Shown one piece after another: positions 13,729-32,000 of a stretch of 32,000 nucleotides of DNA. A model generated the notes under the pieces. The model searched no databases, was not told where the DNA came from, and saw only the letters and a program-made list of their open reading frames with translations. This stretch comes from Cupriavidus necator (GTDB lineage Bacteria; Pseudomonadota; Gammaproteobacteria; Burkholderiales; Burkholderiaceae). The position numbers and the translations under genes are program-made. Each line of letters opens with the position of its first letter. The stretch's first letter is position 1. The stretch is from the NCBI RefSeq assembly GCF_016127575.1, contig NZ_CP066018.1, positions 2,640,001 to 2,672,000 on the forward strand. The letters run 5' to 3'.

Positions 13729-13744
13729 CAGTGGCCAGGGCGTA

Positions 13745-14483: not shown

Positions 14484-14665
14484 CGATTTATTTTCGATGT
14501 CGGCTTGCGGGCACTGGCTGCGGGCGCTGCCGCATGCTACGGGTGACGGGCCGCGGCCAACAGGCGGCGTGCCGGTGTTGGCGCGGCCGCGACAGTGGCG
14601 CGCCAAAGGCGATGCGATTGGCAGGGGGCGCCCGCGCGCGGCGTTGCACGCCGGCTTCGCATGGT

Positions 14666-14746: not shown

Positions 14747-16798
14747 ATGTCGGGGCATCCGGTGGCCAGTCTCAAAGAACTGATCCGCAAGTTCCAGAAC
14801 GGCGGTCTCTCCGACGACGAGTTTGTTGCGTCGTTCGAAACGGCGCTGGCGCAGGATCCCACCACGCCCAGCCAGGCCGCGCGCGTGGTCATCGAGGAAA
14901 ACACGCGCTTCCCGTTCCCGCCCGCGGTCTATGCCGAAGTCATGCGGCGCATCGAGCGCCGCGGCGCCACGCAGTACGACGGCGCCACCGAGGCCACGCG
15001 CCTGGCCGGCACGCAGACGGGCTCGCTGTATGCGACCTCGCCCGAGCCGGGCACGCTGCCGCAGGCGGCGCATACCAAGGGCGTGGGCGATACGCTGAAC
15101 GGCCGCTTCGTGCTGGAAGAATGCCTGGGCGTGGGCGGCATGGGCACGGTCTACAAGGCGCTCGACCTGCGCAAGCTGGAAGCCTCGGACCGCAAGCCCT
15201 ATATCGCCATCAAGGTGCTGAACCTGCAGTTCAGCGGGCACCCCAAGTCGCTGATGGCGCTGCAGCGCGAGGCGCGCAAGGCGCAGACGCTGGCGCACCG
15301 GAATATCGTCACCGTCTATGACTTCGACCGCGACGGGCCGGTGGTCTTCCTGACCATGGAATACCTGTCAGGCTCTTCGCTCAACCATGTGCTCAAGGCC
15401 CCGGGCTTCACCGGCATGCCGATGGCGCGCGCCATGTCGATCATCAACGGCATGGGCAATGCGCTGGCATACGCGCACGAGCGCGGCTTCGTGCACTGCG
15501 ACTTCAAGCCCGCCAACGTCTTCCTGACCGCCAACGGCGAGGTCAAGGTGATCGACTTCGGCATCGCGCGCGGCTTCCTGCCGCCGGCCGACGAGTCCGA
15601 CCGGACCGTGTTCGATCCCGGCTCGCTGGGTGGCATGACGCCAGCCTACGCCAGCCCGGAGATGTTCGACCATTGCGAGCCCGACCCGCGCGACGACATC
15701 TTTGCGCTGGCCTGCGTGACCTATGAACTGCTGACCGGCAAGCATCCCTACCAGCGGCTCTCGGCCAACCAGGCGCGCGATGCCGGGCTCAAGCCGGCGC
15801 AGCCGCCGCAGTTGAGCCGCACGCAGTGGAAGACCCTGCGCGAGGCGCTGTCGCTCGACCGCGAGACACGCACGCCCACCGTCGCGCGCTTCCTGCATGG
15901 CATGAGCGCGGTGCCGGTGGTGTCCACGCGGCGCCCCTCGCCGCTGATGGCAGGCGGCGCGCTGGCCGTGCTGGCGGGCGTGTCGGCGATCGGCTACTAC
16001 GCCTGGCATTCGCAGCGCCAGGCCGAAGCACCGGCTGGCGATGCGCGCGTCGAGGCCCCGGCTACACCGGTGCCCGCAGCGCCGGTCATCCCGCCCGCAC
16101 CGGCTGCCCGCCCGGCGGTGCTGTCGATGGCCGACGTCACGAAGATGCTGGCCGCGGTGCCGTGCTCGCTGCTCACCGCCACCCAGCAGGCGCAGACGTT
16201 GCGTGTGCGTGGCTTCCTGGCCGAGAGCGTCGGCGCCGTGCGGCTGCGCGAGCAGCTCAGCGCGTTGCCGGGCGTCAAGGAGCTCAAGGGCGTGTCGATC
16301 GACACCCAGCCGCTGGCCGCCGACAAGTGCGACGTGGCCACCCTGATCGCGCCGTACTGGTCGGGCCACCGCGAAGGGGGCACGGCTTCGTCGCTGCGGC
16401 TGCGCGGCCAGGGCACGCAGCTGACCGAAGGGTCACCGCTGGTGCTGGATCTGCGCACGCCGGCGCGCGACTCCTATGTCTATGTCGATTACTTCGCGGC
16501 CGACGGCAAGGTGGCGCACATGGTGCCGAGCGCGCGCGTGCCCGCCCACCAGGCGCCGCCCAGCCATGGCGCCACGGTTGGCGACGGTGGCGACTGGATC
16601 ATCTCCGGGCCGTTCGGCACCGAGCTGGTGGTGTTGCTGACCACGCCCGCGCCGCTGTTCGATGGCCGGCGCGCCGAGGTCGAGCTGCACAAGGACTACC
16701 TGAAGGCACTGGAAAAGCCGCTGGCGCAGATGGCGCGCACCTATGGCCGGGACCGCATCAGCGCGGACCTGGTGCAGATCTCCACGCGCGCGCGCTGA
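14747..16798 (+). CDS. Transmembrane Hanks-type Ser/Thr protein kinase (non-RD) with a periplasmic DUF4384-like C-terminal domain
   Basis: Track ORF 14534..16798 trimmed to ATG 14747 (MSGHPVASLKELIRKF...); GTG 14723 is an alternative. GVGGMGTVYKA, IAIKVL, HCDFKPANVF (HRD->HCD), VIDFGIA, TPAYASPE. TM segment LMAGGALAVLAGVSAIGYYAW. C-terminal SYVYVDYFAADGKVAHMVPS...ELVVLLT resembles DUF4384. Confidence 0.9.
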   Translation: MSGHPVASLKELIRKFQNGGLSDDEFVASFETALAQDPTTPSQAARVVIEENTRFPFPPAVYAEVMRRIERRGATQYDGATEATRLAGTQTGSLYATSPEPGTLPQAAHTKGVGDTLNGRFVLEECLGVGGMGTVYKALDLRKLEASDRKPYIAIKVLNLQFSGHPKSLMALQREARKAQTLAHRNIVTVYDFDRDGPVVFLTMEYLSGSSLNHVLKAPGFTGMPMARAMSIINGMGNALAYAHERGFVHCDFKPANVFLTANGEVKVIDFGIARGFLPPADESDRTVFDPGSLGGMTPAYASPEMFDHCEPDPRDDIFALACVTYELLTGKHPYQRLSANQARDAGLKPAQPPQLSRTQWKTLREALSLDRETRTPTVARFLHGMSAVPVVSTRRPSPLMAGGALAVLAGVSAIGYYAWHSQRQAEAPAGDARVEAPATPVPAAPVIPPAPAARPAVLSMADVTKMLAAVPCSLLTATQQAQTLRVRGFLAESVGAVRLREQLSALPGVKELKGVSIDTQPLAADKCDVATLIAPYWSGHREGGTASSLRLRGQGTQLTEGSPLVLDLRTPARDSYVYVDYFAADGKVAHMVPSARVPAHQAPPSHGATVGDGGDWIISGPFGTELVVLLTTPAPLFDGRRAEVELHKDYLKALEKPLAQMARTYGRDRISADLVQISTRAR

Positions 16799-16843: not shown

Positions 16844-18067
16844 CTACTTCATGTCGCGCGCCACGCGAAAGCCGTTCTGCGACTGCCGCACGCTGGGGCT
16901 GTACTTGAAGCGCGTGGACGACACCATGTAGTTCGCCCCCTCGCGCCAGGAGCCGCCGCGGATCACGCGTGCGCCGCAGGCGTTCTCGTTCCATACGCGC
17001 CCGTCGGCGGGCGCGCCCTTGTATGAGCTGTGCCAGCAATCGGCCACCCATTCCCACACGCTGCCGTTGACGTCGTGCAGGCCGTACGGGTTGGCCGCGA
17101 ATGTCCCGACCGCGGCCGGCGCATCCTGGCTCCATGGGTCGCCGCAGTCCTTGCAGTTGGCATTGCCCTTGCGCATCTGGTCGCCCCACCAGTAGGCACT
17201 GGCGGTGCCGCCGCGCGCTGCGTATTCCCATTCGGCCTCGGTGGGCAGCCGGTAGGACTTGCCGGTGGTCTTGCTGAGCCAGGCCACGTACTGCTGCGCG
17301 TCGTCCCAGCTGACGTCGCGCACCGGCGCGTTCTTCGCGCTGTCGGCGACGGTGGGGACGCGCTGGCAGCCGCCGGCGTCGGCGCAGGCATTCCATTGCT
17401 CGACCGTGACCTCATAGCGGCCGATGGCAAACGGCTGGCCGATGGTGACGTGGTGCGGGGGCTTCTCGGCGGGATCGCTGGCACTGCTGCCCATGGTGAA
17501 GCTGCCCGCCGGCAGGGGGACCAGCACCGGGCAGGCCGGGCAATCGCGGATCTCGCCGGTGCGCAATGTGGCGCTGACCGCGCCGCCCGCCGCCGCGCCC
17601 GGGCGCAGCGATGCCGTTGCCGGTGGCGCAGCAGGTGGCGCAGCAGGTGACGCAGCGGGCGGCGATGCCGGACGCGCTGCCGCGGCCGGTGCCGGCGGCC
17701 GCGTGACCTGGCCCCCGGCAGAGGTGCCGGAGCGGGGCGGCGGTGCGGGCGCCTGGGCCTTGGGTGCGGAGGCGGACGCCGCCAGCCGCTCCAGGCGCGC
17801 CCTGGCCAGCACCGCGAAGCGTCCGTTGGGGTACTGCTTCAGGTAGGCCTCGTAGTCGCCGGCATAATTGCTGTTCTTGATCGATTCCCAGAAGCTCAGC
17901 TCGTACTGCTCCTCGGTGTTCTTGGGCATGATGCCGGCGAGCAGCAGCGGTTCCGTGGCCGCGGGGCCGGCGGCAGCGGCGGCCGCCTGCGCGGGCAGCG
18001 GCGCGGCGGCGAGCATGGCGGCCATGGCGGCCGTGCGTACGACTGGTAGATTGCGCCACATCTTCAC
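16844..18067 (-). CDS. Secreted FGE-sulfatase-fold (SUMF1/EgtB/PvdO family) protein with an N-terminal helical module and a Pro/Ala linker
   Basis: Signal peptide [58 protein letters not shown] module. FGE domain: [76 protein letters not shown]. Confidence 0.85.
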
Positions 18068-18355
18068 ACCTCGCTGGAGCCGCGGCGATCCCGCTGCATG
18101 CCGGTAGCTGCCGGCACATGCGTCGGGGGCGCATTGTGGTGTTGCCGAGACGTCGACCGGCTTGCTTCAAGATAGCACAGCGCGTGTGTCTCCGGCGGGG
18201 CATTGGCACGCAACCGCGACGCGCCGGGTTCGCTTTTTCCGTGCTTGCGACCTAACCTGAATGACGAATCGCCGAGCGCTGACCAACAAGCAACAAGAAT
18301 GGGCTTTCGGGACAACGTGATCGGGTTTCGGACTGTTATCCGGGAGGCGCCGCGT

Positions 18356-18781
18356 ATGTCCAGACGATTCCTGTTCCGCCTGCTGGCGGTTGCCGCCCTC
18401 GCCGCGGCCCCGTCGCTGTCGCTGTCGACGGCAGCCCCGCCCAATGCCGAGGCCTACATCATCTGGCCGCACGATGGCACGGTCATCAGCGGCGGCAAGT
18501 TCTGGGTGCGCATGGGCCTGCGCAATATGGGCGTGTGCCCCAAGGGCGTCGAGTCGCCGCGCTGCGGGCACCACCACCTGCTGGTCGACACCGAGCTGCC
18601 GCCGCTGGACAAGGAAATCCCTTCGGACAAGAACCACCTGCACTTCGGCGCGGGCGAGACCGACGCGCGCATTGAGTTGCCGCCCGGCAAGCACACGCTG
18701 CAATTGCTGATGGGCGATGCCAAGCACGTGCCGTTCGAGCCGCCGATCTATTCGAAGAAGATCACGATCACGGTGAAATAG
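18356..18781 (+). CDS. Secreted DUF4399-family protein (copy 1)
   Basis: Track ORF trimmed to ATG 18356 (RBS gggagg). Signal peptide MSRRFLFRLLAVAALAAAPSLSLSTA. GHHHLLVD, HLHFGAGETD, LPPGKHTLQLLMGD motifs. Confidence 0.75.
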   Translation: MSRRFLFRLLAVAALAAAPSLSLSTAAPPNAEAYIIWPHDGTVISGGKFWVRMGLRNMGVCPKGVESPRCGHHHLLVDTELPPLDKEIPSDKNHLHFGAGETDARIELPPGKHTLQLLMGDAKHVPFEPPIYSKKITITVK

Positions 18782-18840
18782 CGGTGCAGCGCGCGCCGCG
18801 GAAGCCGAACCTAGGCCGATCAGCAAACAGGGAGAGCACC

Positions 18841-19269
18841 ATGTCCAGACTACTTGCCGCGGCTGTCTTTGCCGCCAGCCTGCTGCTGTCAGCGGTGGTG
18901 CAGGGTGGTTCGACGCCGGCGCCGCCCAACGCCTACCTGTATATCGGCTGGCCCAACGACGGGCAGACGATGCCCGCGGGCAAGCCATTCAAGGTCTGGT
19001 TCGGGTTGCGCAATATGGGGGTGGCGCCAAAGGACGTGAAGTATCCCAATACTGGGCACCATCACCTGCTTGTCGATGTGGACCTGCCGCCGATGGACAA
19101 GGAGATCCCCAATGACCGCAATCACCTGCATTTCGGGGCGGGGGAGACCGAGACCATGATCGAGCTGCCGCCCGGCAAGCATACGCTGCAGCTGCTGATG
19201 GGGGATGACAAGCACATTCCCACCAACCCGCCGGTTTATTCGAAGAGGATCACGATCTACGTGAAGTGA
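18841..19269 (+). CDS. Secreted DUF4399-family protein (copy 2, tandem paralog)
   Basis: Track ORF trimmed to ATG 18841 (RBS gggagag). Signal peptide MSRLLAAAVFAASLLLSAVVQG. Same GHHHLLVD / HLHFGAGETE / LPPGKHTLQLLMGD motifs; roughly two thirds identical to copy 1 by eye. Confidence 0.75.
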   Translation: MSRLLAAAVFAASLLLSAVVQGGSTPAPPNAYLYIGWPNDGQTMPAGKPFKVWFGLRNMGVAPKDVKYPNTGHHHLLVDVDLPPMDKEIPNDRNHLHFGAGETETMIELPPGKHTLQLLMGDDKHIPTNPPVYSKRITIYVK

Positions 19270-19314: not shown

Positions 19315-19443
19315 GTGCGCTGGCGCCGCAAGTGTCGGTCGCCATCCAACATCGACGGGCAAGCTGTTGGCTGCGCGCCGCCAGTGCGCGCTGACGCAGG
19401 CTCGCCGCGCCTCCGCCGCCGGCGCTGGCGGCAAGAAAAATTC

Positions 19444-19462
19444 CCCGTGTTTACAGGCACTT
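19444..19462 (+). promoter_or_regulatory. Conserved upstream element of the sigma54 promoter, copy B
   Basis: CCCGTGTTTACAGGCACTT, 30 nt upstream of TGGCAC and preceded by agaaaaatt. It pairs with copy A (14465-14483, minus strand). Confidence 0.35.
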
Positions 19463-19492: not shown

Positions 19493-19508
19493 TGGCACGC
19501 TCCCTGCG
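19493..19508 (+). promoter_or_regulatory. Sigma54 (-24/-12) promoter of pepB1-pepB2
   Basis: gcTGGCACGCTCCCTGCGAT: TGGCAC-N5-CTGC with GG-N10-GC spacing. The ~69-nt leader to ATG 19588 is highly similar to the pepA1 leader (cctcc.gagcgcgacaccaacccgatgctcga...ccttcctctacc.ggagaccatcATG). Confidence 0.75.
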
Positions 19509-19587: not shown

Positions 19588-19857
19588 ATGACCACGCTGA
19601 CCATCACCGACCTGACCACCGTCGACACCCTGGACCGCAAGGGCATGCTCGCCGTTCGCGGCGGCCGCACCCTGCTCCCGTTCATGCCGGTGTACCACCC
19701 GCTCAACCTGTCGTTCGACCACAGCATCACCGCCGTGCAGGAAATCGCGCAGATGCAGACCGTCACCAATATGAATGGCAACGGCTCGGCCTTCCTGGAC
19801 CACGTGAAGTCCGACGTGCACACCAACCAGAACGCCACCAACAACATCTACGGCTGA
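19588..19857 (+). CDS. GG-leader peptide precursor (pepB1)
   Basis: Track ORF 19315..19857 trimmed to ATG 19588. MTTLTITDLTTVDTLDRKGMLAVRGG|RTLLPFMPVYHPLNLSFDHSITAVQEIAQMQTVTNMNGNGSAFLDHVKSDVHTNQNATNNIYG. Confidence 0.8.
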   Translation: MTTLTITDLTTVDTLDRKGMLAVRGGRTLLPFMPVYHPLNLSFDHSITAVQEIAQMQTVTNMNGNGSAFLDHVKSDVHTNQNATNNIYG

Positions 19858-19904: not shown

Positions 19905-20174
19905 ATGACCACGCTGACCATCAAAGACCTGTCCGCCACCGAAACCCTCGACAGCAAGCGCATGCATGCCGTGCGCGGCGGCCTGTCGTACCTGCCCTTT
20001 GCCGCCGTGTATGCGCCGATCAAGCTCGCGTTCGACAGCAGCATCACCGCCAAGCAGGAAATCGCGCAGTTGCAGTCCGTGACCAACCTGAACGGCAATG
20101 GCTCGGCCTTCCTCGACCATGTCCGTTCGCATGTGGATACCAACCAGAACGCCAGCAACAATATCTATCGTTGA
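19905..20174 (+). CDS. GG-leader peptide precursor (pepB2)
   Basis: MTTLTIKDLSATETLDSKRMHAVRGG|LSYLPFAAVYAPIKLAFDSSITAKQEIAQLQSVTNLNGNGSAFLDHVRSHVDTNQNASNNIYR. Confidence 0.8.
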   Translation: MTTLTIKDLSATETLDSKRMHAVRGGLSYLPFAAVYAPIKLAFDSSITAKQEIAQLQSVTNLNGNGSAFLDHVRSHVDTNQNASNNIYR

Positions 20175-20194: not shown

Positions 20195-20229
20195 AGCGCC
20201 GCGGGGGCGTCCCCGCGGCGCTTTTGTTG
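20195..20229 (+). terminator. Rho-independent terminator/attenuator between pepB2 and the NodT gene
   Basis: agcgccgcgggg-gcgt-ccccgcggcgct followed by tttgttg. Confidence 0.6.
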
Positions 20230-20358: not shown

Positions 20359-21822
20359 GTGCCTGAATCCATCACTGCCTCGCCCGCGGTTGCGTCAACC
20401 GCCGCGCCGCACCGTACCGCCTGGCTGGCCGCGCTGGCCGCCTGCGCGGCATTGCTGGCAGGCTGCGCCGATTTCCGGCCGCCGGTGTACCAGCGCCCGG
20501 AAACCCCGGCCAAGGCCGAATGGACGCGCCAGGAATCGATCACGGTATCGCCGGCCGAAACGGTGCAGCCCAACTGGTGGCTGGGCTTCAAGGATCCTTA
20601 CCTGAACAGGCTGATCGACCAGGCGCTTTACGGCAACTACGACATCAAGGTGCTGGCGGCGCGCATCCGCGTGGCCAACGCGCAGATCGGCGAGGCCCGT
20701 GCCGGCGGGCTGCCGGTGATCGATATCGGCGCCGGTGCGAGCTTCGAGAAGAGCACCGGGCAGAAGTCCACCTGGACCTATAACGCCGGCGCCCAGCTGA
20801 ACTGGGACATCGACATCTGGGGCAAGGTCGAGAAGGGCGTGCAGGCGCAGACCGCCGAGTTCCGCGCCACCGAGGCCGACTGGCGCGCCGGCTACCTGAC
20901 GCTGGTGTCCAATGTATCGACCACTTACTTCCAGATCCTGCAGTTCGACGAGCAGATCGAGCAGCAGGCGCGCACCGTGGCCAAGAACGGGCAGATCCTG
21001 TCGACCTACCAGGCCATGTACCAGAACGGCCTGGTGCCAAAGATCCGGGTGATGCAGCAGCAGGCGGAAATCAACCGCCTGAACAAGGACCTGCTGGAGC
21101 TGCGCCGTTCGCGCGATGTGGCTGAAAACGCGCTGGCCACGCTGGTCGGTGTGCCCGCGGGCAATCTCAAGGTGCCGGCGGGGCGCCTGCAGGACCGCGT
21201 GCAGCCGCCCGCGGTGCCGGCCGGGCTGCCGTCGCAACTGCTGGCGCGCCGCCCGGACGTGGTGGCGGCGGAATACCGCGTGCTGGCCGCGTACAACATC
21301 GTTGGCCAGGCCCGTTTGGCGCAGTTGCCCACCATCAGCCTGACCGCGCGCGGCGGCACCGCCAGCTTTGCGCTGAGCGACCTGCTCAAGTCATTCACCT
21401 TCGGCTTCATGCCCAGCATCAACCTGCCGATGCTCGACCCGAGCGTGCGCGCGCGCGTGAAGACCACCGAGGCGCAGGTGGGCGTGGCGGAAAACGAATA
21501 TGGCCGCACCGTGATGACCGCGTTCGAAGAGGTGGAGAGCGCACTGGTCAATGTCGACGCGCACAAGAAGCAGCGCATCGAGCTGCAGCAGCAGGTTGAG
21601 CAGCTGCGCGTCGTGTCCGCGCAGATCGAGGCGCAACTGAAGGAGGGCGTGGTCTCGCAGCTGGAAGTGTTCGAGACCGAGCGCTCGCTGCTGGCCGCGC
21701 AACTGCAGTTGTTGGCGGTCCACCAACAGATCCTGGCCGACACCGTCACCCTGTACAAGGCGCTTGGCGGTGGCTGGCCCGATACCGACGTGCGCAACGC
21801 GGCGTCGAATCCGCCGCAGTAA
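20359..21822 (+). CDS. NodT-family (OprM/TolC-like) outer-membrane efflux lipoprotein
   Basis: Track ORF trimmed to GTG 20359 (aggaa RBS 5 nt upstream). Lipobox LLAGC|ADF. WWLGFKDPYLNRLIDQALYGNYDIKVLAARI is the typical NodT N-terminus. Two OEP repeats; ends LYKALGGGW. Confidence 0.85.
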   Translation: MPESITASPAVASTAAPHRTAWLAALAACAALLAGCADFRPPVYQRPETPAKAEWTRQESITVSPAETVQPNWWLGFKDPYLNRLIDQALYGNYDIKVLAARIRVANAQIGEARAGGLPVIDIGAGASFEKSTGQKSTWTYNAGAQLNWDIDIWGKVEKGVQAQTAEFRATEADWRAGYLTLVSNVSTTYFQILQFDEQIEQQARTVAKNGQILSTYQAMYQNGLVPKIRVMQQQAEINRLNKDLLELRRSRDVAENALATLVGVPAGNLKVPAGRLQDRVQPPAVPAGLPSQLLARRPDVVAAEYRVLAAYNIVGQARLAQLPTISLTARGGTASFALSDLLKSFTFGFMPSINLPMLDPSVRARVKTTEAQVGVAENEYGRTVMTAFEEVESALVNVDAHKKQRIELQQQVEQLRVVSAQIEAQLKEGVVSQLEVFETERSLLAAQLQLLAVHQQILADTVTLYKALGGGWPDTDVRNAASNPPQ

Positions 21823-21956: not shown

Positions 21957-21984
21957 TTGACTAGCCTTTGCCGTCGCCTACTAT
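21957..21984 (+). promoter_or_regulatory. Candidate sigma70 promoter (TTGACT-16 nt-TACTAT) of the FHA-HlyD-PPIase-ABC-EBP operon
   Basis: gaTTGACTagcctttgccgtcgccTACTATgttc, ~65 nt upstream of ATG 22049. Confidence 0.4.
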
Positions 21985-22048
21985 GTTCTTAGTCGCTTCA
22001 TCCCCTGGCCTGCCGCCGCGGCAGCCGCGCTGTTGGCTTGCTGGAAAC

Positions 22049-24658
22049 ATGGCTCCTGACGAAGCACTGATCATGGAAATGCCGGTGAAAATGGCCCAGG
22101 GATTCACGCGGGAATTCTCTCAGGATCTGGCGCAGGAATTCGATGTGTTCCTGACGCCCGTGTCGCGCCCGGAGCTGGGCGAGATCCGCATCGACGAAGA
22201 CCTGTTCGCCGTCGGACGCAGCGAACTGCCGTTCGCCGCCTACCCCGAAGACCTGGCCGCACCGCTGTCGCGCCGGCATGCGCGCATCTTCGCCGAGCAT
22301 GGCGCGGTCTATGTGGCGGATCTCGGCAGCAAGAACGGCACGCGCGTGAACGGCGCGGCGGTGGCGCGCCAGCCGGCGCAGCTCAGCGATGGCGATGAGG
22401 TGGCCTTCGGGCCGGCGCTGTCGTTCCGGGTCCGGCTGTCGCCGCGCGCGGCGCAGCCCGAGCCGCCGCGGGTAGCGGTGACGTTGGTGCCCGAGCGCGG
22501 CGATGTCGGGCTGCAGCCGCTGCACGTGGACGGCTTCCCCTACCTGATCAGCAAGGCCGACGACGCCTTCGCGCGCTACCGCGACAGCTATCCGCAGCAG
22601 GTCAACTACCTGTCGCGGCGCCACGCGCACGTGTACCTCAAGGGTGGCGTGCCATTCGTTGAGGACCTGGGCAGCACCAACGGCACCTTCGTCAACGGCA
22701 AGCGCCTGGCCGACCACGGCGTGCCGCTGGACGACGGCGACCTGATCGCCTTTGGCGGCAACCACTTTGTCTACAAGGTGCAGGTCCAGCACACCGGCGA
22801 CGGCGATGCCACCGCGACGCATTCGATGCTGCAGCCAGTCGCTGCGCCCGACACGCCGCCCGCATCCCAGGCTTCGCCCGTGCGCGACGAGGATGACCGC
22901 ACTACCTTTGTCGGTGCCGCCGATTCCTTCCTCGACATCTTCTGCGTCGACTATGCCGCGCAGCAGGACGACGAGGTCAACGCCGAGGCCGAGGCACAGG
23001 CCGCGGCGGCCACGGCCGCGCACGACGGCGCGCAGGCACGCCGCAAGCGCGGGCGTGCCGCGCTGCTGCTGGCCGAAGGTGCCAGGCAGTTCGGCCTGAA
23101 CGATTCCGTACGCACGCGGCGCGCGGCGCGATGGGGCGGCGCGTTGCTGTTGCTCGCGCTGCTGGCGGGGGCGGCCGTGTACTGGCGCGGTGCGCCGGAG
23201 CGCGAAGTGCAGGCGCTGTTTGCCGCAGGCGATCACGCGCGCGCGGCGCAGGCCGCCGACAACTACCTGGCGCGTCATCCCGGCGATGCCCAGGTGCAGG
23301 CCATCGGCACCGAGGCACTGATGCGTGCCGACGTGCCCGCTTTCGCCGCCAGGCTGAAGGCCGGTGATTTCAGCGGCGCCGATGCCGTGCTGGCCCGGAT
23401 GCGCAAGCTCAGCGCGCACAATGCCGATGCGCGGCCGCTGGTGGCGGAACTCGACTGGATCGGCCGGCTCGAACGCTTCACCGCGCAGCGCGGCGCCGAC
23501 ACGCCGATCCGCCTCTACACCGACGAGGCGCCGATCCGGCAACTGCTGGCGTACTGGAACCAGGACACCACCGCGCACCAGCGCGCGCTCGGGCGCATCG
23601 CGGCCGATGTGCCGGCGTTCCGCGATCTCTACGCCGATGCGCTCAGCGACGTGCGTCGCCTGCAGAACGACGCCTCGGTCTACCTGGCGGCGATCGACCG
23701 GCTGAACACCACCATTGCCGCCGAACTCGGCCGCGACCGCCCGGAGGCATTGCAGCCCGTCATCGCCGAGTACCGCGAGAAGTATCCGCGCCTGGCCGGG
23801 CTGGACCGCGTGCAGTCAGACCTGGACCGCTACACCGCGCTGATGCAGGCACTGCGCGCGCGCCGGCCCGGGCCGCTGGTGGCGCGCCTTGCCGACAGCC
23901 GCTTCGCCACGCCGCCGTTCCAGGCGCAGTTCAACCAACTGGCCGCGCGCCTGCCGCCGCCGGAGATGGTGCGCCAGTATGCCGGTGCGGCCAGGGCGTG
24001 GCAGCAGGGCGACAGCGCCGCAGCGCTCGCGGGGATCAAGCAGATCAGCGGCGGCCCCTGGGCCGAGGACCTGGCGCGCGACCTGTCGCACAAGCAGAAG
24101 GTGGCGGCGCAGTACGCCGAGCTGCAGTCCGCGCGCGGCAGCAAGGGCTATGAGGACCGGCTGCTGGGCTTCTACGCCATGCTCGATGCCGCCGATGACG
24201 GCCACTTCGCCAAGGCGGTCGAGGCCGACGTCAACGGCGTGCGCGACAGTGCCCTGCGGCGCGCGCGGGAACTGATGGGCAGCGCCGTCGCCGCATGGAA
24301 GCAATACCGCAGCAATGGCGTGATCGGCAGCGAGCAGCGGCTCGAGCCCGGCATCTCGCCCAGGTTCCGCGCGCAGGCCCGGTTGCTGTCGCAGGCACAG
24401 GATGACGCGCGCCAGGGCATGCGCATCTTCACGCAACTGCGCGCGGGCGAAAGCGCCGACCTGGCGCAACTCGCCAAGATCGAGGAAGAGATCCGCGCCG
24501 AGGCCGACCAGCAGCGGCACGCGCTGCGCGAGTTGCGCACCGTGCTCGATCCCGCCGTGCTCAAGACCAAGCTGGAGCTGATCGGCGGTGAAGACACCGG
24601 CAAGGCGCCGGAGCCGGCCGCGGCTGCCGCGGCGCCACAGCAAGCGGGGCAGCCATGA
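22049..24658 (+). CDS. Membrane-anchored double-FHA-domain protein with a large helical (TPR-like) periplasmic region
   Basis: Start ambiguous (ATG 22049, 22073, 22079 or 22091; 22091 has ggtga upstream). FHA1: VGRSELPF...LSRRHARIF...DLGSKNGTRVNG. FHA2: LISKADDAF...LSRRHAHVY...DLGSTNGTFVNG (G-R replaced by S-K). TM segment WGGALLLLALLAGAAVYW. The stop overlaps the HlyD ATG (ATGA, 24655-24658). Confidence 0.8.
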   Translation: MAPDEALIMEMPVKMAQGFTREFSQDLAQEFDVFLTPVSRPELGEIRIDEDLFAVGRSELPFAAYPEDLAAPLSRRHARIFAEHGAVYVADLGSKNGTRVNGAAVARQPAQLSDGDEVAFGPALSFRVRLSPRAAQPEPPRVAVTLVPERGDVGLQPLHVDGFPYLISKADDAFARYRDSYPQQVNYLSRRHAHVYLKGGVPFVEDLGSTNGTFVNGKRLADHGVPLDDGDLIAFGGNHFVYKVQVQHTGDGDATATHSMLQPVAAPDTPPASQASPVRDEDDRTTFVGAADSFLDIFCVDYAAQQDDEVNAEAEAQAAAATAAHDGAQARRKRGRAALLLAEGARQFGLNDSVRTRRAARWGGALLLLALLAGAAVYWRGAPEREVQALFAAGDHARAAQAADNYLARHPGDAQVQAIGTEALMRADVPAFAARLKAGDFSGADAVLARMRKLSAHNADARPLVAELDWIGRLERFTAQRGADTPIRLYTDEAPIRQLLAYWNQDTTAHQRALGRIAADVPAFRDLYADALSDVRRLQNDASVYLAAIDRLNTTIAAELGRDRPEALQPVIAEYREKYPRLAGLDRVQSDLDRYTALMQALRARRPGPLVARLADSRFATPPFQAQFNQLAARLPPPEMVRQYAGAARAWQQGDSAAALAGIKQISGGPWAEDLARDLSHKQKVAAQYAELQSARGSKGYEDRLLGFYAMLDAADDGHFAKAVEADVNGVRDSALRRARELMGSAVAAWKQYRSNGVIGSEQRLEPGISPRFRAQARLLSQAQDDARQGMRIFTQLRAGESADLAQLAKIEEEIRAEADQQRHALRELRTVLDPAVLKTKLELIGGEDTGKAPEPAAAAAAPQQAGQP

Positions 24659-26037
24659 AGGACGATGCCCGCCAGGGCGGCCTCAAGCCACTCTCCGAGG
24701 CGCTGGAAGACCACAGCGCCGAGGGCATCGGCCTGCTGAGTGCCGAGCCGTCGCGCCTGGGGCTGCTGACCATCGTCACGACTTTCACGCTGGTGTTGTG
24801 CGGGCTGGTGTGGTCCTTCGTCGGGCATGCCGATGTCATTGTCACGGCGCAGGGCACGCTGGCGCCGGAATCCGAGGTGCGCCGCTTCTATGCCCCGGTG
24901 GACGGCGAGCTGGCCGACCTCTACGTGGCCGAGGGGCAACCGGTGTCCAAGGACGACGTGCTGGCGCGCCTGAATGCGCGCGGCGCGATCGAGGCCGCGG
25001 CCAACGCGCTGGAAGCGCAGCTCAAGCTGGAAGACTCCGAGCGCGAATGGAAGCAGTTCCCCGACAAGAAGGCGCTGATGGAACGCCGCGCGGCGGCGCT
25101 CAAGCAGCAGATCGACGTGGCCACGCGCCAGCACGAGACCCGCATCGCCGAAGGCACCACGCGGCTTGCCGAACAGCAGCGCGCGCAGTTGCAGGAAGCG
25201 CGCAGCAACCTCGAGAACGCCCGGCGCGCGCGCGAATTCGCGCGCCAGGAGCAGGACCGATACGCGCGCCTGCTGGCGTTGCCGGGTGGCGGTGGCGTTT
25301 CGCAGTCGCAGGTGGATGCCAAGCGCGCCGCGGCGCAGGACGCGGAGAACAACCTGCGCGTGGCGCAGTCGCGGCTGACGGAGCTGGACGCACGCCTGGG
25401 CCGCGAGCTTACCCAGGCCAGTTCCCAGCTAGAAAGCAGCGGCCAGGACCTGGCCGGGCTGCGCGTGCAGTACGACGCGGCGCTGCGCGAGATCGCCAAC
25501 ACCGAGGACAAGCTGCGCCTGCAGGTGCAGACCGCGCGCCTGGTGGCGGACGCGGCAGCGCGCATCCGCTTCGAGAACATCGACAAGGACAACTTCCTGC
25601 TGATCCTGGCGCCGGTGTCGGGCGTGATCACCGATGTCACCTCCACCCAGCGCGGCGACAAGGTGCAGGCCAACACGCCGCTGGGCGGCATTGCCCCCAA
25701 GGATGCGCGCCCGGTGGTGAAGATCGTCATCGCCGAGCGTGACCGCGCTTTCCTGCGCGAGGGCCTGCCGGTCAAGCTCAAGTTCAGTGCCTTCCCGTAC
25801 CAGCGCTACGGGATCATCGAGGGCACGCTGGAATTCATCTCGCCCGCGACCAAGCCGGGCGGACCCGACAAGCAGCCGGTCTACGAGGGCCGCGTGCGGC
25901 TGGCGCGCGACTACTACGCGGTGGCCGACAACAAGTATCCGCTGCGTTACGGCATGACCGCCACGGCAGAGATCGTGGTGCGCGAACGCCGCCTGATCGA
26001 CCTGGGGCTTGACCCCTTCCGCGAGGTGGCCGGCTAG
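24655..26037 (+). CDS. HlyD-family membrane-fusion / periplasmic adaptor protein
   Basis: N-terminal TM (LGLLTIVTTFTLVLCGLVWSF), long coiled-coil (residues ~110-300), C-terminal beta-barrel motifs (ISPVSG-like APVSGVITDV, VKIVIAERD, LKFSAFPYQRYG, GMTATAEI). Confidence 0.85.
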   Translation: MKDDARQGGLKPLSEALEDHSAEGIGLLSAEPSRLGLLTIVTTFTLVLCGLVWSFVGHADVIVTAQGTLAPESEVRRFYAPVDGELADLYVAEGQPVSKDDVLARLNARGAIEAAANALEAQLKLEDSEREWKQFPDKKALMERRAAALKQQIDVATRQHETRIAEGTTRLAEQQRAQLQEARSNLENARRAREFARQEQDRYARLLALPGGGGVSQSQVDAKRAAAQDAENNLRVAQSRLTELDARLGRELTQASSQLESSGQDLAGLRVQYDAALREIANTEDKLRLQVQTARLVADAAARIRFENIDKDNFLLILAPVSGVITDVTSTQRGDKVQANTPLGGIAPKDARPVVKIVIAERDRAFLREGLPVKLKFSAFPYQRYGIIEGTLEFISPATKPGGPDKQPVYEGRVRLARDYYAVADNKYPLRYGMTATAEIVVRERRLIDLGLDPFREVAG

Positions 26038-26114: not shown

Positions 26115-26867
26115 ATGACTGGTATTGTGCGTATCGACGACGAGGTGCTTGGCTTCGAGGAGTTCGTGCGCTTGCTCAAGCTGACCGGACAGTTCGAAGG
26201 GCTGGTCGAGCAGATGGTGCGCGACAAGCTGACCGTGCACGCGGCAAAGCGGCAGGGCGTGGTGGTCACGCCGGAGGAGATCCAGGAACGCGCGGACCAG
26301 TTCCGCCGCGTGCAGGGCCTGCATCGCGCCGCAGACATGAATCACTACCTGGATGCGCTGAACATCAGCCTGGACGAATTCGAGGCCTTTGTCACCGACA
26401 GCCTGTACCAGGAGCGGATGATGGAGCAGGTGTGCAGCGAGGCCGCGGTGCAGGCGTACTTTGCGCTCAACTCGCCGCGCTTCGACAGCATCGAGGTCAG
26501 CCATATCGTGGTCGACAGCGAGGGCAAGGCCAAGGAGCTGATCTCGTACCTGCAGGATGATCCCGATGCCTTTGCCGAGATGGCGCGCGAGCATTCCATC
26601 GCCGACACGCGCGAGCGCGGAGGCGAGATCGGCAAGGTGCTGCGCGGCTCGCTCAAGACCGATATCGAGGCCAAGGTGTTCAATGCCGAGCCTGGCGACC
26701 TGCTGGGACCGTTCCCGTCGGCTGACCGTTCCTTCTTCGAAGTCTTCCTGGTGCGCGAAAAACACCCGGCCACCCTCGATAGCGAGGTGGCGGTGGAAGT
26801 GCGCCGCCTGCTGCGCGAAGACTGGCTGATGGCCAGGGCGCAGGAACATGTCATCGAAGCCCGCTAG
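26115..26867 (+). CDS. Cytoplasmic PpiC/parvulin-type peptidyl-prolyl cis-trans isomerase
   Basis: No signal peptide (MTGIVRIDDEVLGFEEF...). Rotamase domain SHIVVDSEGKAKELISYLQDDPDAFAEMAREHSIADTRERGGEIGKVLRGSL...EPGDLLGPFPSADRSFFEVFLV. The 3' end overlaps the ABC gene start by 20 nt. Confidence 0.8.
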   Translation: MTGIVRIDDEVLGFEEFVRLLKLTGQFEGLVEQMVRDKLTVHAAKRQGVVVTPEEIQERADQFRRVQGLHRAADMNHYLDALNISLDEFEAFVTDSLYQERMMEQVCSEAAVQAYFALNSPRFDSIEVSHIVVDSEGKAKELISYLQDDPDAFAEMAREHSIADTRERGGEIGKVLRGSLKTDIEAKVFNAEPGDLLGPFPSADRSFFEVFLVREKHPATLDSEVAVEVRRLLREDWLMARAQEHVIEAR

Positions 26868-29800
26868 CGCGAGCGGCGAGCCCGCCGCCCCGCCTGCCCC
26901 GGACCAGCCGGAGGCAGGATCGGCGCTGGCCGCCTTCCTCGCCACCGTCGAGATCCTGTCGGTGCTGGTGCCGGAGGAGCTGGCACGCCTGGCGGAAGCC
27001 GCGCAGGTGCTGACCTTCGGCTTTGGCGACACCGTCTGCAATGCCGGCGAAGCGGCGCCGGGCCTGTTTATCGTCAAGTCCGGCTCGGTGCGCGTGTTCA
27101 ACGAGGAGCACGGCAAGGAAATCAGCATGGGCGTGCGCAAGGCCGGCGAGGTCTTTGCCGATATCGCGCTGCTGCGCGACTACCGGCATGAGTCGTCGGT
27201 GCGCGCCTCGGGCAAGACCGAACTGCTGCTGATCCCGCGCAGCGTGGGCGAGCCGGTGGTGGCCGGCAACCCGGCGGCGCTTGCGTTTATCACCAGCTAT
27301 GTCGCGATCAGCTCGGCCGGCGGCTTTGTCGCGCGGCTGTTCGACCTGCGCGGCAAGCTCGACAAGCAGGAGCTGGAAGACGCCGTGCGCAGCGTCGGCG
27401 TCAAGCGCGTGGCGGCCGGCAAGGAGATCCTGAAGCAGGACGGCCGCGAAGACCGGCGCCTGTACGTGGTGCGCCAGGGCACGGTGCGCATCGTGCGCAG
27501 CGAAGAGGGCAGCGAGTACCCGCTGGCGACGCTGGGGCAGGGCGACATCTTCGGCGAGCGCGCCTGCGTGATGCGGCAGGAGCAGCTGGCCTCGGCCATT
27601 GCCGATACCGACGTGCGCCTGCTGGTGATTCCCGAGAAGACGGTGCAGCTGATTTTGGAGCGCAACCCGCGCCTGCGCGAGGTGCTGGAAGAGCGCATCC
27701 GCGTGCTGGACCGCGAGTTGCATCGGCAGAAGAAGCTGGCCGAACGGCGCAAGCGCCCGGTGCTGCTGGACCTGCATTCAAAGCCCGAGCTCGGCGAAAA
27801 GCTGATCCGCCGCTTCGCGCTGGTGGAGCAGGCCGAGGAGATGGATTGCGGCGCGGCCTGCCTGGCGATGATCTGCCGGCACTACGGCATCCCGATGACG
27901 CTGGGCAAGCTGCGCGAACTGGCCAATGTGACCACCCAGGGCGCCACGCTCGACAGCCTGGCGCGCGCCGGCGAAGCGCTCGGCTTCACCACGCGCGGGG
28001 TGCAGTGCACGCGGGATTCGCTGATGGGGTTCGAGCTTCCCTTCATCGTGCACTGGGAGGGGTACCACTACGTGGTGGTGTACGGGATCTCGTCGCGCTG
28101 GGTGTGGGTGGCCGACCCGGCCATCGGCTTCCGCAAGATGAGCGCCGAGGAGTTCGAGCGCGGCTGGAGCGGCACCTGCCTGCTGTTCACGCCGGGCGAG
28201 AGCATGACCCAGCTGTCGGTGTCGCGCTCGCCGTGGCTGCGCTTTATCGGCTACCTGGCGCCGTACAAGAGGATCCTGGCGCACCTGTTTCTGGCCACCT
28301 TCGTGATCCAGATGCTGGGGGTGGTCCCGCCGCTGATTATCCAGAACATCCTGGACGGCGTGGTGGTGCACCAGAACGTGGGGCTGCTGAACCTGCTGAT
28401 CGCGGGGCTGATCATCTCCAACGTGTTCTCGCAGCTGATGTCTACGATTCGCGCGTATCTGGCCAACTTCATGGTGCGCAACATGGATTTCGCCATGATG
28501 TCGCACTTCTTCAAGCACACGCTGTCGCTGCCGCTGTCGTTCTTTGCCAAGCGCAAGACCGGGGACATCTTCGCGCGCTTCCAGGAGAACCAGACCATCC
28601 GCGCCTTCCTGACCGAGTCGACCGTGACCACGGCGCTGAACCTGCTGATGGTGTTTATCTACTTCACCATCATGTTTCTCTACAACGTCAAGCTGACGCT
28701 GCTGCTGATCGCCTTCGTGATCCCGATCGCGGCGCTGACGGTGGTGGTGACGCCCAAGGTCAAGACCTATGCGCGCGAGGTGTTCGCGGCATCGACCGAT
28801 GCCAAGGCCTACCTGATGGAAACGCTGGGCGGCGCCGAGACCGTCAAGGGCATGGGCATCGAGCGCCCGGTGCGGCTGCGCTGGGAGCGCAAGTACGCCA
28901 AGGCGCTGGACGCGCAATACCGGGCACAGGCCTTCCACATCCTGGTGGGGCTGGTGAGCCAGCTGCTCAACGCCGCCACCACCATCGCGGTGCTGTGGGT
29001 GGGCGCGACGCTGGTGCTGGAGCGCGAGCTCACCATCGGCCAGCTGATCGCCTTCAATGCCTTCATGGGCAGCGTGCTGGCGCCGCTGATGGGGCTGGTG
29101 GCGTTGTGGGGCCAGCTCAACGATGCCGGCGTGGCGATGGAGCGCCTGGGCGACGTGCTCGACCTGGAGCCCGAGCAGAAGCCGCAGGACGTGCTGTCGC
29201 GCGTGATGCTGCCCGACCTGCAGGGCGAGATCGTGATGAAGGACCTGTACTTCCGCTACGGCGGCGAAGACACGCCCTATGTGCTGGAGAACATCAGCTT
29301 CGCCATCCGCCCTGGCGAGATGGTGGCCATCGTCGGGCGCAGCGGCTCAGGCAAGACTACGCTGGCCAAGCTGCTGGTGGGCTTCTACAAGCCTACCGAG
29401 GGCTCGATGACAGTGGACGGCTATGACCTGAACGTGATCGACGCGGCGTTCTACCGCGCGCAGGTGGGCTACGTGATGCAGTCCAACCTGCTGTTCTCGG
29501 GGACCATTGCCGAGAACATCGCCTGCGGCGACGACAGCCCGGACCGGCGCCGCATCGAGGAGGTGGCGCGCATGGCCGATGCCCACGCCTTTATCAGCAA
29601 GCTGCCGCTGGGCTACGAGCAGGTGGTGGGCGAGCGTGGTATCGGGCTTTCCGGCGGGCAGATCCAGCGCCTGTGCATTGCCCGCGCGCTGTACCACGAC
29701 CCGCGCCTGCTGGTGTTCGACGAGGCCACCTCGGCGCTCGACACGCAGTCAGAGAGCAACATCCTGGCGAATATGCAGGAGATCCTGCGCGGGCGCACCG

Positions 29801-29958
29801 CGGTCATCATCGCGCACCGGCTCAGCACCATCATGCAGGCCGATAAGATCCTGGTGCTGTATGAAGGCGCCATCGTCGAGCAGGGCCGGCATGAGGAGCT
29901 GATCGAGCGCAAGGGCATGTATTTCCAACTGGTGCAGAAGCAACTGAGCGCAGCATGA
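26848..29958 (+). CDS. Peptidase-containing ABC transporter (PCAT): 2 x cNMP-binding-like domains + C39 Cys-peptidase + 6-TM ABC domain + NBD
   Basis: 1036 aa. CNB-like 1 is about aa 30-140 and CNB-like 2 about aa 160-285. C39 domain: EEMDC(334)GAACLAMICRHYG, HWEGYHYVVVYG, WVADP (Cys/His/Asp present). NBD: GRSGSGKTT, LSGGQIQRLCIARAL, LLVFDEATSALD, IIAHRLS. Confidence 0.92.
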   Translation: MSSKPASASGEPAAPPAPDQPEAGSALAAFLATVEILSVLVPEELARLAEAAQVLTFGFGDTVCNAGEAAPGLFIVKSGSVRVFNEEHGKEISMGVRKAGEVFADIALLRDYRHESSVRASGKTELLLIPRSVGEPVVAGNPAALAFITSYVAISSAGGFVARLFDLRGKLDKQELEDAVRSVGVKRVAAGKEILKQDGREDRRLYVVRQGTVRIVRSEEGSEYPLATLGQGDIFGERACVMRQEQLASAIADTDVRLLVIPEKTVQLILERNPRLREVLEERIRVLDRELHRQKKLAERRKRPVLLDLHSKPELGEKLIRRFALVEQAEEMDCGAACLAMICRHYGIPMTLGKLRELANVTTQGATLDSLARAGEALGFTTRGVQCTRDSLMGFELPFIVHWEGYHYVVVYGISSRWVWVADPAIGFRKMSAEEFERGWSGTCLLFTPGESMTQLSVSRSPWLRFIGYLAPYKRILAHLFLATFVIQMLGVVPPLIIQNILDGVVVHQNVGLLNLLIAGLIISNVFSQLMSTIRAYLANFMVRNMDFAMMSHFFKHTLSLPLSFFAKRKTGDIFARFQENQTIRAFLTESTVTTALNLLMVFIYFTIMFLYNVKLTLLLIAFVIPIAALTVVVTPKVKTYAREVFAASTDAKAYLMETLGGAETVKGMGIERPVRLRWERKYAKALDAQYRAQAFHILVGLVSQLLNAATTIAVLWVGATLVLERELTIGQLIAFNAFMGSVLAPLMGLVALWGQLNDAGVAMERLGDVLDLEPEQKPQDVLSRVMLPDLQGEIVMKDLYFRYGGEDTPYVLENISFAIRPGEMVAIVGRSGSGKTTLAKLLVGFYKPTEGSMTVDGYDLNVIDAAFYRAQVGYVMQSNLLFSGTIAENIACGDDSPDRRRIEEVARMADAHAFISKLPLGYEQVVGERGIGLSGGQIQRLCIARALYHDPRLLVFDEATSALDTQSESNILANMQEILRGRTAVIIAHRLSTIMQADKILVLYEGAIVEQGRHEELIERKGMYFQLVQKQLSAA

Positions 29959-31299: not shown

Positions 31300-32000
31300 T
31301 CAGGCGTCCAGCTCGGGATTGACCAGGGTCTTGTCAGAGCCGTACGGGTCCGCCGCACGCAGCACCACCACCGACACGTTGTCGCGGCCGCCGGCATCGA
31401 GCGCCATCTGCACCAGCGTCGGCGCGGCCTGCGCAACGTCCTGCTGCGCCAGCACCGCCGCGATGTCGTCATCGTCGACCTCGTTGCTCAGGCCATCGCT
31501 GCACAGCAGGTACACGTCGCCATCGGCGACCTCGGTCAGCAGCTGCTCCGGCGCCAGCGTCGGGGCCGCGCCGACGGCGCGTGTGATGGTGTTCTGCGCG
31601 GGATGGTGGCGCGCTTCTTCCGGGGTGATCAGCCCGCGCGCCAGCAGGCGCTCGACCTGGTTGTGGTCGCGCGTGAGGCGCGCGAACTGGCCGCCGCGCA
31701 GCCGGTACAGGCGGCTGTCGCCGGCCCACACGCAGGCGCAACGGCGATCGCCCGCCAGCATTACCACCACCGTGCTGCCGATGCAGCGCACGCCCAGGCG
31801 CGCCGCTTCATCGACCAGCGCCAGGTTCACGCCCTGCAGCGCCGCGCGCGTGGCGTCGACCCGGTCTTCCAGCCGGGGCTGCGGCGGCAGCGTGGCCAGC
31901 GCCTGGACCACCGCCTGGCTGGCGAAGTCTCCCACGGCATGGCCGCCCATGCCGTCGGCCACTGCCCACAGGTCCTGGCTGGGCAGATCCAGGCAAGCGT
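31300..32000 (-). CDS. PP2C-family Ser/Thr protein phosphatase (5' end beyond the right edge of the window)
   Basis: The track ORF starts at M 31962, but the frame stays open to 32000 (..ACLDLPSQDLWAVADGMGGHAVGDFAS). The ADGMGGH motif is internal in PP2C enzymes. LLCSDGLSNEV and GGRDNVSVVVL are the C-terminal PP2C motifs. Confidence 0.85.
   Translation of the reverse strand, partial: ACLDLPSQDLWAVADGMGGHAVGDFASQAVVQALATLPPQPRLEDRVDATRAALQGVNLALVDEAARLGVRCIGSTVVVMLAGDRRCACVWAGDSRLYRLRGGQFARLTRDHNQVERLLARGLITPEEARHHPAQNTITRAVGAAPTLAPEQLLTEVADGDVYLLCSDGLSNEVDDDDIAAVLAQQDVAQAAPTLVQMALDAGGRDNVSVVVLRAADPYGSDKTLVNPELDA

Follow-up and report, generated by a model that had tools for sequence, protein, structure and literature searches.

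A double-FHA membrane protein encoded beside a peptide exporter in Cupriavidus necator, a candidate phospho-regulated component of type I secretion

A 32,000-nucleotide stretch of the Cupriavidus necator genome (assembly GCF_016127575.1, contig NZ_CP066018.1, positions 2,640,001 to 2,672,000 of the forward strand; hereafter the window) contains a gene for a membrane protein with two FHA domains, located directly before the gene for a HlyD-family secretion adaptor. A preliminary description of this gene was followed up computationally. The FHA protein appears to be a bitopic inner-membrane component of a dedicated type I secretion system (T1SS) of the peptidase-containing ABC transporter (PCAT) type, which would export peptides of ~89 amino acids with double-glycine (GG) leaders. 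In the reading that we favor, whose prospects we consider evenly balanced, the protein serves the exporter as an accessory subunit under phospho-regulation, either gating or assembling it. Threonine phosphorylation probably acts as the switch for peptide export in these bacteria. The gating role is supported by the intact FHA domains, the conserved gene order, the HlyD gene overlapping or lying close by in most loci, the kinase and PP2C phosphatase encoded nearby, a conserved motif around Thr285, and precedents in other systems. The gene and the parts of its product are as follows.

22049 to 24658, plus strand: gene for the double-FHA, single-pass membrane protein (869 amino acids; open reading frame and translation)
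22139 to 22444, plus strand: FHA1, residues 31-132, with G56-R57, S74-x-x-H77 and N96-G97 (Pfam FHA, AlphaFold2, Foldseek)
22469 to 22795, plus strand: FHA2, residues 141-249, with S168-K169 replacing G-R, S189-x-x-H192 and N211-G212
22895 to 22951, plus strand: candidate phospho-acceptor and FHA-ligand motif D-R-T285-T286-F-V-G-A-A-D-S-F-L-D-I-F-C-V-D (conservation, disordered linker)
23132 to 23188, plus strand: single transmembrane helix, residues 362-380, N-terminus inside (the sole hydrophobic window; helical in both models)
23189 to 24655, plus strand: periplasmic all-helical domain, residues 381-869 (489 amino acids), an unclassified family

The reading frame has a third-codon-position GC content (GC3) of 0.87 and shares the codon-position GC pattern of the coding genes of this 68% GC window. 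The protein shares 97% identity with one from Cupriavidus sp. SK-4. Full-length homologues number in the hundreds and occur in at least 450 species genomes among those scanned, so the features described here are not a chance pattern; public databases name these relatives only 'FHA domain-containing protein'. The whole protein scored 99.8 bits on the Pfam FHA model (PF00498), with two matches. Each domain was also significant when searched alone, where the cut-off is 20.7 bits: FHA1 reached 52.5 bits (E = 7e-14) and FHA2 54.7 bits (E = 1.4e-14). An AlphaFold2 model of residues 1-410 placed beta-sandwiches at 31-132 and 141-249 with pLDDT > 90, and Foldseek matched both folds to the FHA domains of GarA, FhaA, OdhI, and DgcB (target-normalized TM-scores of 0.75-0.84). 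The FHA1 residues G56-R57, S74-R-R-H77, and N96-G97 showed no variation across 31 homologues. FHA2 has S168-K169, S189-R-R-H192, and N211-G212, of which the Ser, His, and Asn are invariant. By profile, fold, and phosphothreonine (pThr)-contact residues, both are bona fide FHA domains, for which pThr binding is predicted. The preliminary description had proposed two such domains, a canonical FHA1 and an FHA2 with S-K in place of G-R; the domains hold up and the alignment confirms the residues. K169 is invariant among close homologues, and G-R or T-R occurs there in several relatives of 26-27% identity. Rather than pointing to decay, the lysine is thus a conservative change in a domain that selection still maintains. 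A single-sequence phmmer search of the FHA region and linker motif against the PDB gave no match. FHA structures in the PDB were reached only by the family profile, and an Rv1747 FHA domain (6cah) was among the sequence matches.

Residues 252-311, a stretch of ~60 residues between FHA2 and the transmembrane helix, are predicted to be disordered (pLDDT < 50). This linker holds the Thr285 motif, whose family form is D-(K/R)-T285-T286-F-V-x-A-A-D-S-F-L-D-I-F-C. T285, F294, L295, and I297 are invariant even in relatives of 24-27% identity, and the +3 position from T285 is hydrophobic in all relatives aligned. The region carries the signature of a short linear motif. The linker motif here (DRTTFVGAADSFLDIF) resembles the GarA sequence VETTSVFRADFLSEL, which holds pT21 and pT22. 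The GarA phospho-switch sequence ETTSVFRADFL was verified against PDB entry 2kfu ('Rv1827 pThr 22'). The similarity is short and may be convergent. Because it is invariant, lies in a disordered linker, and is GarA-like, T285 is the obvious candidate for a phospho-acceptor and FHA ligand. In one distant member of the family from the representative library (P0166), a third FHA domain is inserted between FHA2 and the conserved Thr motif.

Nine Lys or Arg residues occur in the 30 residues before the transmembrane helix and three in the 30 after it, predicting an N-in, C-out topology. The periplasmic region was modeled by AlphaFold2 as 22 helices (mean pLDDT of 89.8) with no strand of three or more residues. 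One N-in transmembrane helix followed by a helical periplasmic region of ~480 residues, as first described, is thus an accurate outline of residues 362-380 and the 489 residues beyond them. The C-terminal 472 amino acids matched no Pfam or NCBIfam family, and a Foldseek search of the domain against the PDB found no relative (best E value of 0.07, TM-score < 0.2). A tetratricopeptide repeat (TPR) identity was considered and dropped, as the signals from Pfam, NCBIfam, and Foldseek against the PDB were no more than weak noise of TPR or spectrin-like kind. Searched exhaustively, the domain yielded 329 representative clusters, and the majority of those listed have 800-860 amino acids, with the domain at the C-terminus of the same FHA-FHA-transmembrane architecture. 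The domain is well conserved, has many invariant aromatic residues, and represents a well-predicted fold with no solved relative.

The genes around the FHA gene encode the parts of an exporter and an activator, all on the plus strand.

20359 to 21822, plus strand: outer-membrane factor (OMF) lipoprotein of the NodT/OEP family (Pfam OEP, TIGR01845; GTG start inferred from the lipobox LLAGC)
21957 to 21984, plus strand: sigma-70-type promoter-like element TTGACT-N16-TACTAT upstream of the FHA gene (consensus scan)
24655 to 26037, plus strand: HlyD-family type I secretion adaptor (Pfam HlyD_3; TIGR01843, E = 3.4e-49)
26115 to 26867, plus strand: PpiC-type peptidyl-prolyl isomerase-like protein (Pfam Rotamase)
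26848 to 29958, plus strand: ABC exporter (PCAT) of 1036 amino acids with two cNMP-binding domains and an active-type C39 peptidase (Pfam, NCBIfam)
29955 to 31271, plus strand: sigma-54 enhancer-binding protein (EBP; Pfam Sigma54_activat at residues 105-269)

For synteny, the window proteins served as tblastn queries on 80 fetched loci, which came from Cupriavidus, Ralstonia, Pandoraea, Caballeronia, Paraburkholderia, Noviherbaspirillum, Undibacterium, Aromatoleum, and Rhodocyclaceae. The cassette order OEP-FHA-HlyD-PpiC-like-cNMP/C39/ABC-EBP is kept in about 65 of the 80 and ranges across Burkholderiales and Rhodocyclales. It is also retained in two relatives with FHA proteins of 26-27% identity on contigs of 43-46% GC, one of which has unannotated split open reading frames at the HlyD position. 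The placement of a pThr reader genetically at the exporter, as originally claimed, is borne out by this order and its persistence in the distant relatives, which make the link both firm and ancient. HlyD adjoins the FHA gene in 78 loci. In the window, the FHA-gene stop overlaps the HlyD start in the sequence cagccATGAagg (ATGA) at 24655-24658, the overlap that had been reported. The exact ATGA recurs in 33 of the 80 loci, about 33 more overlap by roughly 14-38 nt, the exact figure varying with the start codon chosen, and a few have short gaps, the gap in locus L082 being 112 nt. Linkage of the co-translation type is frequent without being universal, and given this variation the overlap does not imply the fixed stoichiometry with HlyD that had been read from it. 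The FHA gene had also been called the first gene of its operon, and this stands in part. A conserved promoter-like element lies directly upstream, with TTGACT-N16-TACTAT kept across Cupriavidus, Pandoraea, Caballeronia, and Paraburkholderia while the flanking spacer diverges; against this, a same-strand OMF gene lies just before it, and in a dozen or so loci the two genes abut or overlap.

Some Noviherbaspirillum loci have no isomerase, ABC, or EBP gene beside HlyD and keep OEP-FHA-HlyD together with the kinase, FGE-like, and DUF4399 genes described below. The FHA protein is therefore tied to the envelope-spanning parts of the system and not to the activator. Two loci of Noviherbaspirillum massiliense (L001 and L047, positions 1-13900) have this form, with OEP, the FHA protein, and HlyD and no adjoining isomerase, ABC, or EBP. 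They additionally encode an FHA-GAF-HD protein, a 540-amino-acid protein of unknown family, an NHL/Vgb_lyase-like protein, and an FGE-like protein fused to a caspase (Peptidase_C14) domain.

The surrounding machine is a PCAT-type T1SS, with an ABC exporter, HlyD, OMF, C39 peptidase, and GG-leader substrates all present. The catalytic residues of C39 are kept in the ABC exporter (Cys in MDCGAACLAM, His in HYVVV, and Asp in ADP), and its sequence matches the structures of HlyB, PCAT1, and ComA. The FHA protein is homologous to none of the core T1SS families (ABC, membrane fusion protein, OMF) and had only FHA-type matches in Pfam and NCBIfam. The PpiC-like protein scored 84.5 bits on the peptide maturation model TIGR04500, below the cut-off of 180, and is related only. 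The EBP start overlaps the ABC-gene stop. Residues 1-100 of the EBP form a conserved helical region with no family hit and no recognized sensor domain, and an FHA or receiver domain at this end was ruled out for want of a family hit. No Thr is invariant in the EBP N-terminus and one is nearly so; the Thr of RSTLRW is replaced in two loci, and those of TTLRD are variable. With no invariant Thr in the N-termini of HlyD, ABC, or EBP, an FHA ligand on the exporter or activator was rejected as evidence. The cNMP domains ahead of C39 (26848-27800, plus strand) raise the possibility that export also responds to a cyclic nucleotide, as proposed for HetC. An anti-phage defense system was considered and set aside, as PADLOC gave only generic kinase, AAA+, and cNMP matches and none on the FHA protein. 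No known RNA elements were found in the window with Rfam.

Candidate substrates and their promoters were identified on both strands upstream of the export operon.

19588 to 19857 and 19905 to 20174, plus strand: two 89-amino-acid GG-leader peptide genes (translations MTTLTIKDL...AVRGG)
14069 to 14338, 13745 to 14014, 13390 to 13662, and 13043 to 13285, minus strand: four GG-leader peptide genes (translations)
19493 to 19508, plus strand: sigma-54-type -24/-12 element TGGCACGCTCCCTGCG, ~80 nt before the first plus-strand peptide gene
14418 to 14433, minus strand: sigma-54-type -24/-12 element TGGCACAGTCCCTGCG, ~80 nt before the first minus-strand peptide gene
20195 to 20222, plus strand: intrinsic terminator-like hairpin following the plus-strand peptide genes (stem of 12 bp, T-rich tail)

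The six peptides are paralogous and 80-90 amino acids in length (four have 89). They share the leader MTTLTIKDL..LD...M.AVRGG, which ends in (V/I)(R/L)GG, and have polar, Cys-free cores rich in Asn, Gln, and Thr. The family has no Pfam or NCBIfam model, and a microcin survey (PMC12219008) names none of these taxa. A regular-expression search identified 251 GG-leader peptides in 71 of 82 related sequences. The upstream regions of the two peptide groups in the window are 83% identical to each other. Across the related sequences (3.37 Mb), the pattern TGGCAY-N5-YTGC occurs 126 times in total. Upstream of 70 peptide genes, spread over 46 of the 71 sequences, it is found at a distance of no more than 200 nt. 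A third class of sigma-54 site lies on the opposite strand, ~10 kb downstream of the FHA gene and just past window position 32000, with sites at the equivalent position in ~45 loci. In locus L005 (19255-20488, minus strand), the sigma-54-type promoter TGGCACGCCGCTTGC is followed by a GG-leader peptide gene and then by a PP2C gene. From this order, the phosphatase would be sigma-54/EBP-dependent, a possible negative feedback.

A TGTT[GC]G element, often CTGTTGGC, is found 110-140 nt upstream of the sigma-54 sites, with a peak at 120-129 nt from the -24 position. It is present at 66 of the 126 sites against a background of ~1 (in the window, for example, at 19368-19375 and 14553-14560), is sometimes half of the inverted repeat TGTTGG-N-CCAACA, and is a candidate EBP binding site. 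The heptamer CTGTTGG occurs within 40 nt upstream of the FHA-gene ATG in 36 of 40 loci and at 22029-22035 in the window. A second block, CCCGTGTTT(A/T)CAGGCA, lies ~46 nt upstream of the -24 position (window 19444-19457 and 14472-14487). It is confined to the Cupriavidus necator group (8 of 126 sites) and could be an IHF-type or other bending site. From the sigma-54 elements, the terminator-like hairpin, and the conserved TTGACT-N16-TACTAT, the likely layout is one of sigma-54 peptide units, a sigma-54 peptide-PP2C unit, and a sigma-70-type operon of FHA-HlyD-PpiC-like-ABC-EBP.

Genes for a kinase, a phosphatase, and exported accessory proteins complete the set.

14747 to 16798, plus strand: transmembrane Hanks-type Ser/Thr kinase with a periplasmic DUF4384 domain (Pfam Pkinase and DUF4384; start inferred)
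31300 to 32000, minus strand: PP2C-family Ser/Thr phosphatase (Pfam PP2C_2, PP2C), convergent to the EBP gene and cut by the window end
16844 to 18067, minus strand: exported FGE-sulfatase-fold protein (Pfam FGE-sulfatase, E = 2.5e-58), syntenic across loci
18350 to 19269, plus strand: two tandem DUF4399 genes for exported proteins (Pfam DUF4399, E = 1e-35 to 1e-38)

The kinase, the FGE-like gene, and the two DUF4399 genes are placed between the two peptide groups, and the kinase is a separate transcription unit 5 kb from the FHA gene. Its catalytic loop has HCD in place of HRD, making it a non-RD kinase, and an alignment of kinase orthologs shows conserved threonines in the activation loop. 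The kinase also has an N-terminal domain of ~75 residues that is conserved and has no family assignment. The PP2C gene is convergent to or follows the EBP gene in 59 of the 66 loci with enough sequence. The preliminary description did not include the six GG-leader substrates, the sigma-54 promoters, the invariant Thr285 motif, or the PP2C.

In the proposed mechanism, the kinase would sense through its periplasmic DUF4384 domain, perhaps helped by the exported FGE-like and DUF4399 proteins, and phosphorylate threonines. The likeliest target would be T285 in the disordered linker of the FHA protein itself, with the kinase activation loop as a second candidate. The FHA domains would then bind these pThr sites in cis or in trans, altering the self-association or conformation of the FHA protein. 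The change would be relayed through the transmembrane helix and periplasmic domain so that HlyD-ABC-OMF assembly or gating is permitted or blocked, and PP2C would reset the switch. Such a Thr-phosphorylation pathway for a T1SS would act on top of sigma-54/EBP control of the peptide genes.

Threonine phosphorylation of a secretion machine is known from type VI secretion (T6SS) in Pseudomonas aeruginosa, where the pathway consists of PpkA, PppA, and Fha1. Sigma-54 activators also occur in some T6SS clusters. The cassette resembles this pathway in that a secretion cluster encodes an FHA protein, a PP2C, and a Hanks kinase that spans the membrane and has a periplasmic part, which suggests post-translational regulation. 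The analogy with Fha1, drawn when the gene was first described, is apt in this respect, with the Hanks kinase upstream and the PP2C downstream in 59 of 66 loci. It differs in that Fha1 is soluble and has a single FHA domain, whereas the protein here is a membrane protein with two, and the machine is a T1SS/PCAT. No T6SS families were found among the window open reading frames with Pfam or NCBIfam, and the FHA protein is therefore not a member of T6SS Fha1/TagH. FHA-transmembrane-periplasmic components are found elsewhere, in YscD/PrgH/MxiG of type III secretion, EssC of type VII secretion, and GltG of gliding motility. These share with the protein here a cytoplasmic FHA domain, a membrane anchor, and a large extracytoplasmic part in a trans-envelope apparatus. 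On the Yop-YscD_cpl model the whole FHA protein scored 42.7 bits (cut-off of 33.2); each FHA domain alone scored 24-26 bits, and the generic FHA model fits better. On the GltG model it scored 46.6 bits against a cut-off of 650. Since the periplasmic part is all-helical, has no ring-building motifs, and each FHA domain alone is below the Yop-YscD_cpl cut-off, the protein does not appear to be of the YscD/PrgH type. The closest structural matches of the FHA domains, GarA, OdhI, and DgcB, bind their own phosphorylated tails, and the structure of the DgcB FHA domain bound to its own phosphorylated tail (PDB 6hc1) is among the Foldseek matches. These proteins differ in being small soluble regulators of metabolism or cyclic di-GMP.

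In Agrobacterium tumefaciens, binding of Fha to pThr-TssL activates type VI secretion (PMC3953482). Rv1747 of Mycobacterium tuberculosis is an ABC exporter with two N-terminal FHA domains that is positively regulated by PknF and has the phospho-acceptors T152 and T210 in its linker (PMC3138270, PMC8339232). The C. necator system is similar in having two cytoplasmic FHA domains, a disordered linker with a Thr that is a candidate phospho-acceptor here, a Hanks kinase encoded alongside, and an ABC exporter as the machine. Rv1747 carries its FHA pair on the ABC polypeptide itself, while here the pair belongs to a separate bitopic protein with a 489-amino-acid periplasmic domain. The ABC protein here has cNMP and C39 domains at its N-terminus and no FHA domain, and thus lacks the fusion that marks the Rv1747 type. 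The pThr sites of Rv1747 are between its FHA domains, whereas the candidate motif here follows FHA2; the present machine is a tripartite T1SS of a Gram-negative bacterium and includes a C39 peptidase, and there is no sequence relationship outside the FHA fold. The FHA protein appears to work like Fha1, YscD/PrgH, and Rv1747 in outline while belonging to none of them. The PCAT exporters PCAT1, ComA, the class II microcin exporter CvaAB-TolC, and HetC share with this system an active C39, GG-leader substrates nearby, and HlyD/OMF partners. HetC of Nostoc is a cNMP-domain PCAT for which a cyclic-nucleotide response has been proposed (PMC10986499), and N-terminal cNMP-binding domains are present on the ABC exporter here too. 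Our literature searches turned up no description of any of these four that includes an FHA membrane protein, a paired kinase and PP2C, or a sigma-54 activator.

Several points weigh against a gating or assembly role. Phosphorylation, ligand binding by the FHA domains, and contact with HlyD, ABC, or OMF are steps that we infer. The cytoplasmic N-termini of HlyD and ABC have no invariant Thr, and a docking site for FHA on the exporter is not obvious. The FHA/HlyD gene overlap is not universal, and any role for the periplasmic domain, which has no recognizable relative, is guesswork. In addition, the EBP has no sensor domain and therefore needs control in trans, a job for which the FHA protein is itself a candidate. 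The main rival, which we consider rather unlikely, starts from this last point and makes the protein a transcriptional adaptor. Its FHA domains would hold or release the EBP or a phospho-intermediate according to the kinase/PP2C state or periplasmic sensing and so set the sigma-54 promoters of the peptide genes and the peptide-PP2C unit, in the manner of PspA/PspF or a membrane anti-activator. This would explain how an EBP with no recognized regulatory domain yet a conserved 100-residue N-terminus is controlled. It suits the position of the EBP in the same operon with its start overlapping the ABC stop, the three conserved classes of sigma-54 site, one of them before the peptide-PP2C unit, and the CTGTTGG close to the FHA-gene ATG, which is kindred to the element upstream of the sigma-54 sites. 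The tight linkage of the FHA gene, however, is to HlyD and not to EBP, the OEP-FHA-HlyD trio persists with no EBP nearby, and the EBP N-terminus offers no invariant Thr.

The size and conservation of the periplasmic domain, with its many invariant aromatics, would also fit a periplasmic sensor or co-receptor, a role that we regard as improbable. The helical domain would bind the peptide (mature or misprocessed), the FGE-like or DUF4399 proteins, or envelope signals, and the FHA domains would only dock to the autophosphorylated kinase, giving an autocrine or quorum-type loop. The confinement of the domain to the FHA-FHA-transmembrane architecture in most listed relatives, the several exported accessory proteins encoded alongside, and the conserved activation-loop threonines of the kinase as possible FHA ligands are all consistent with this. 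The domain has no recognizable ligand-binding fold, though, and a co-receptor leaves unexplained why the gene is linked with those for HlyD and the OMF instead of with the kinase gene, a separate unit 5 kb away. That the gene is a passenger, encoding a generic FHA membrane protein whose position beside the exporter is meaningless, is scarcely credible. The uninformative database names and a link to secretion that comes from genomic context would allow it, but the synteny extends across genera and down to 26% identity, the reading frame overlaps that of HlyD, and a conserved promoter lies upstream.

The favored role as a phospho-regulated accessory subunit can be extended, tentatively and with less confidence, to that of a fourth dedicated inner-membrane subunit of the T1SS. 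The periplasmic domain would form part of the HlyD-OMF conduit or clamp it, the FHA pair would do the gating, and the cassette would be a self-contained circuit for peptide signaling or warfare. In such a circuit, the receptor kinase would sense the outside and export would be gated post-translationally. The EBP would drive the peptide genes as positive feedback, and the sigma-54-driven PP2C would provide delayed negative feedback.

T1SSs are usually described as three-component machines that are controlled mainly through transcription or substrate. The novelty would lie in bringing a known mode of controlling secretion machines, by pThr and FHA domains, to a T1SS by way of a bitopic protein and a periplasmic domain that are both new. 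Searches of the full-text literature, with subscription journals outside their scope, found nothing that joins FHA or Thr phosphorylation to type I secretion and no account of this cassette. One paper (PMC9088363) was considered as a description of the cassette and ruled out, as it concerns a different genomic island. If correct, the favored role would add Gram-negative peptide export to the processes under Hanks-type phospho-control, which is known for T6SS and one mycobacterial ABC exporter. The cassette is widespread, occurring in at least 450 species genomes that include Cupriavidus, Paraburkholderia, Caballeronia, Pandoraea, and Aromatoleum, and comes with an uncharacterized family of secreted peptides. 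The system is tractable and sharply defined, with mutational handles at R57, K169, T285, the kinase, and PP2C.

Two further observations concern other genes in the window. Adjacent genes at 7726-10224 (plus strand) encode a histidine-specific methyltransferase (Methyltransf_33) and a DinB_2/FGE-sulfatase protein that resemble the EgtD/EgtB ergothioneine pair and are unrelated to the cassette. By visual inspection of motifs in its translation, the open reading frame at 10306-12408 (minus strand) looks like a DEAD-box-type helicase. Its C-terminal tail of ~200 residues consists of repeats rich in Gly, Arg, Asn, and Phe (GGFGNR, GGYRG).

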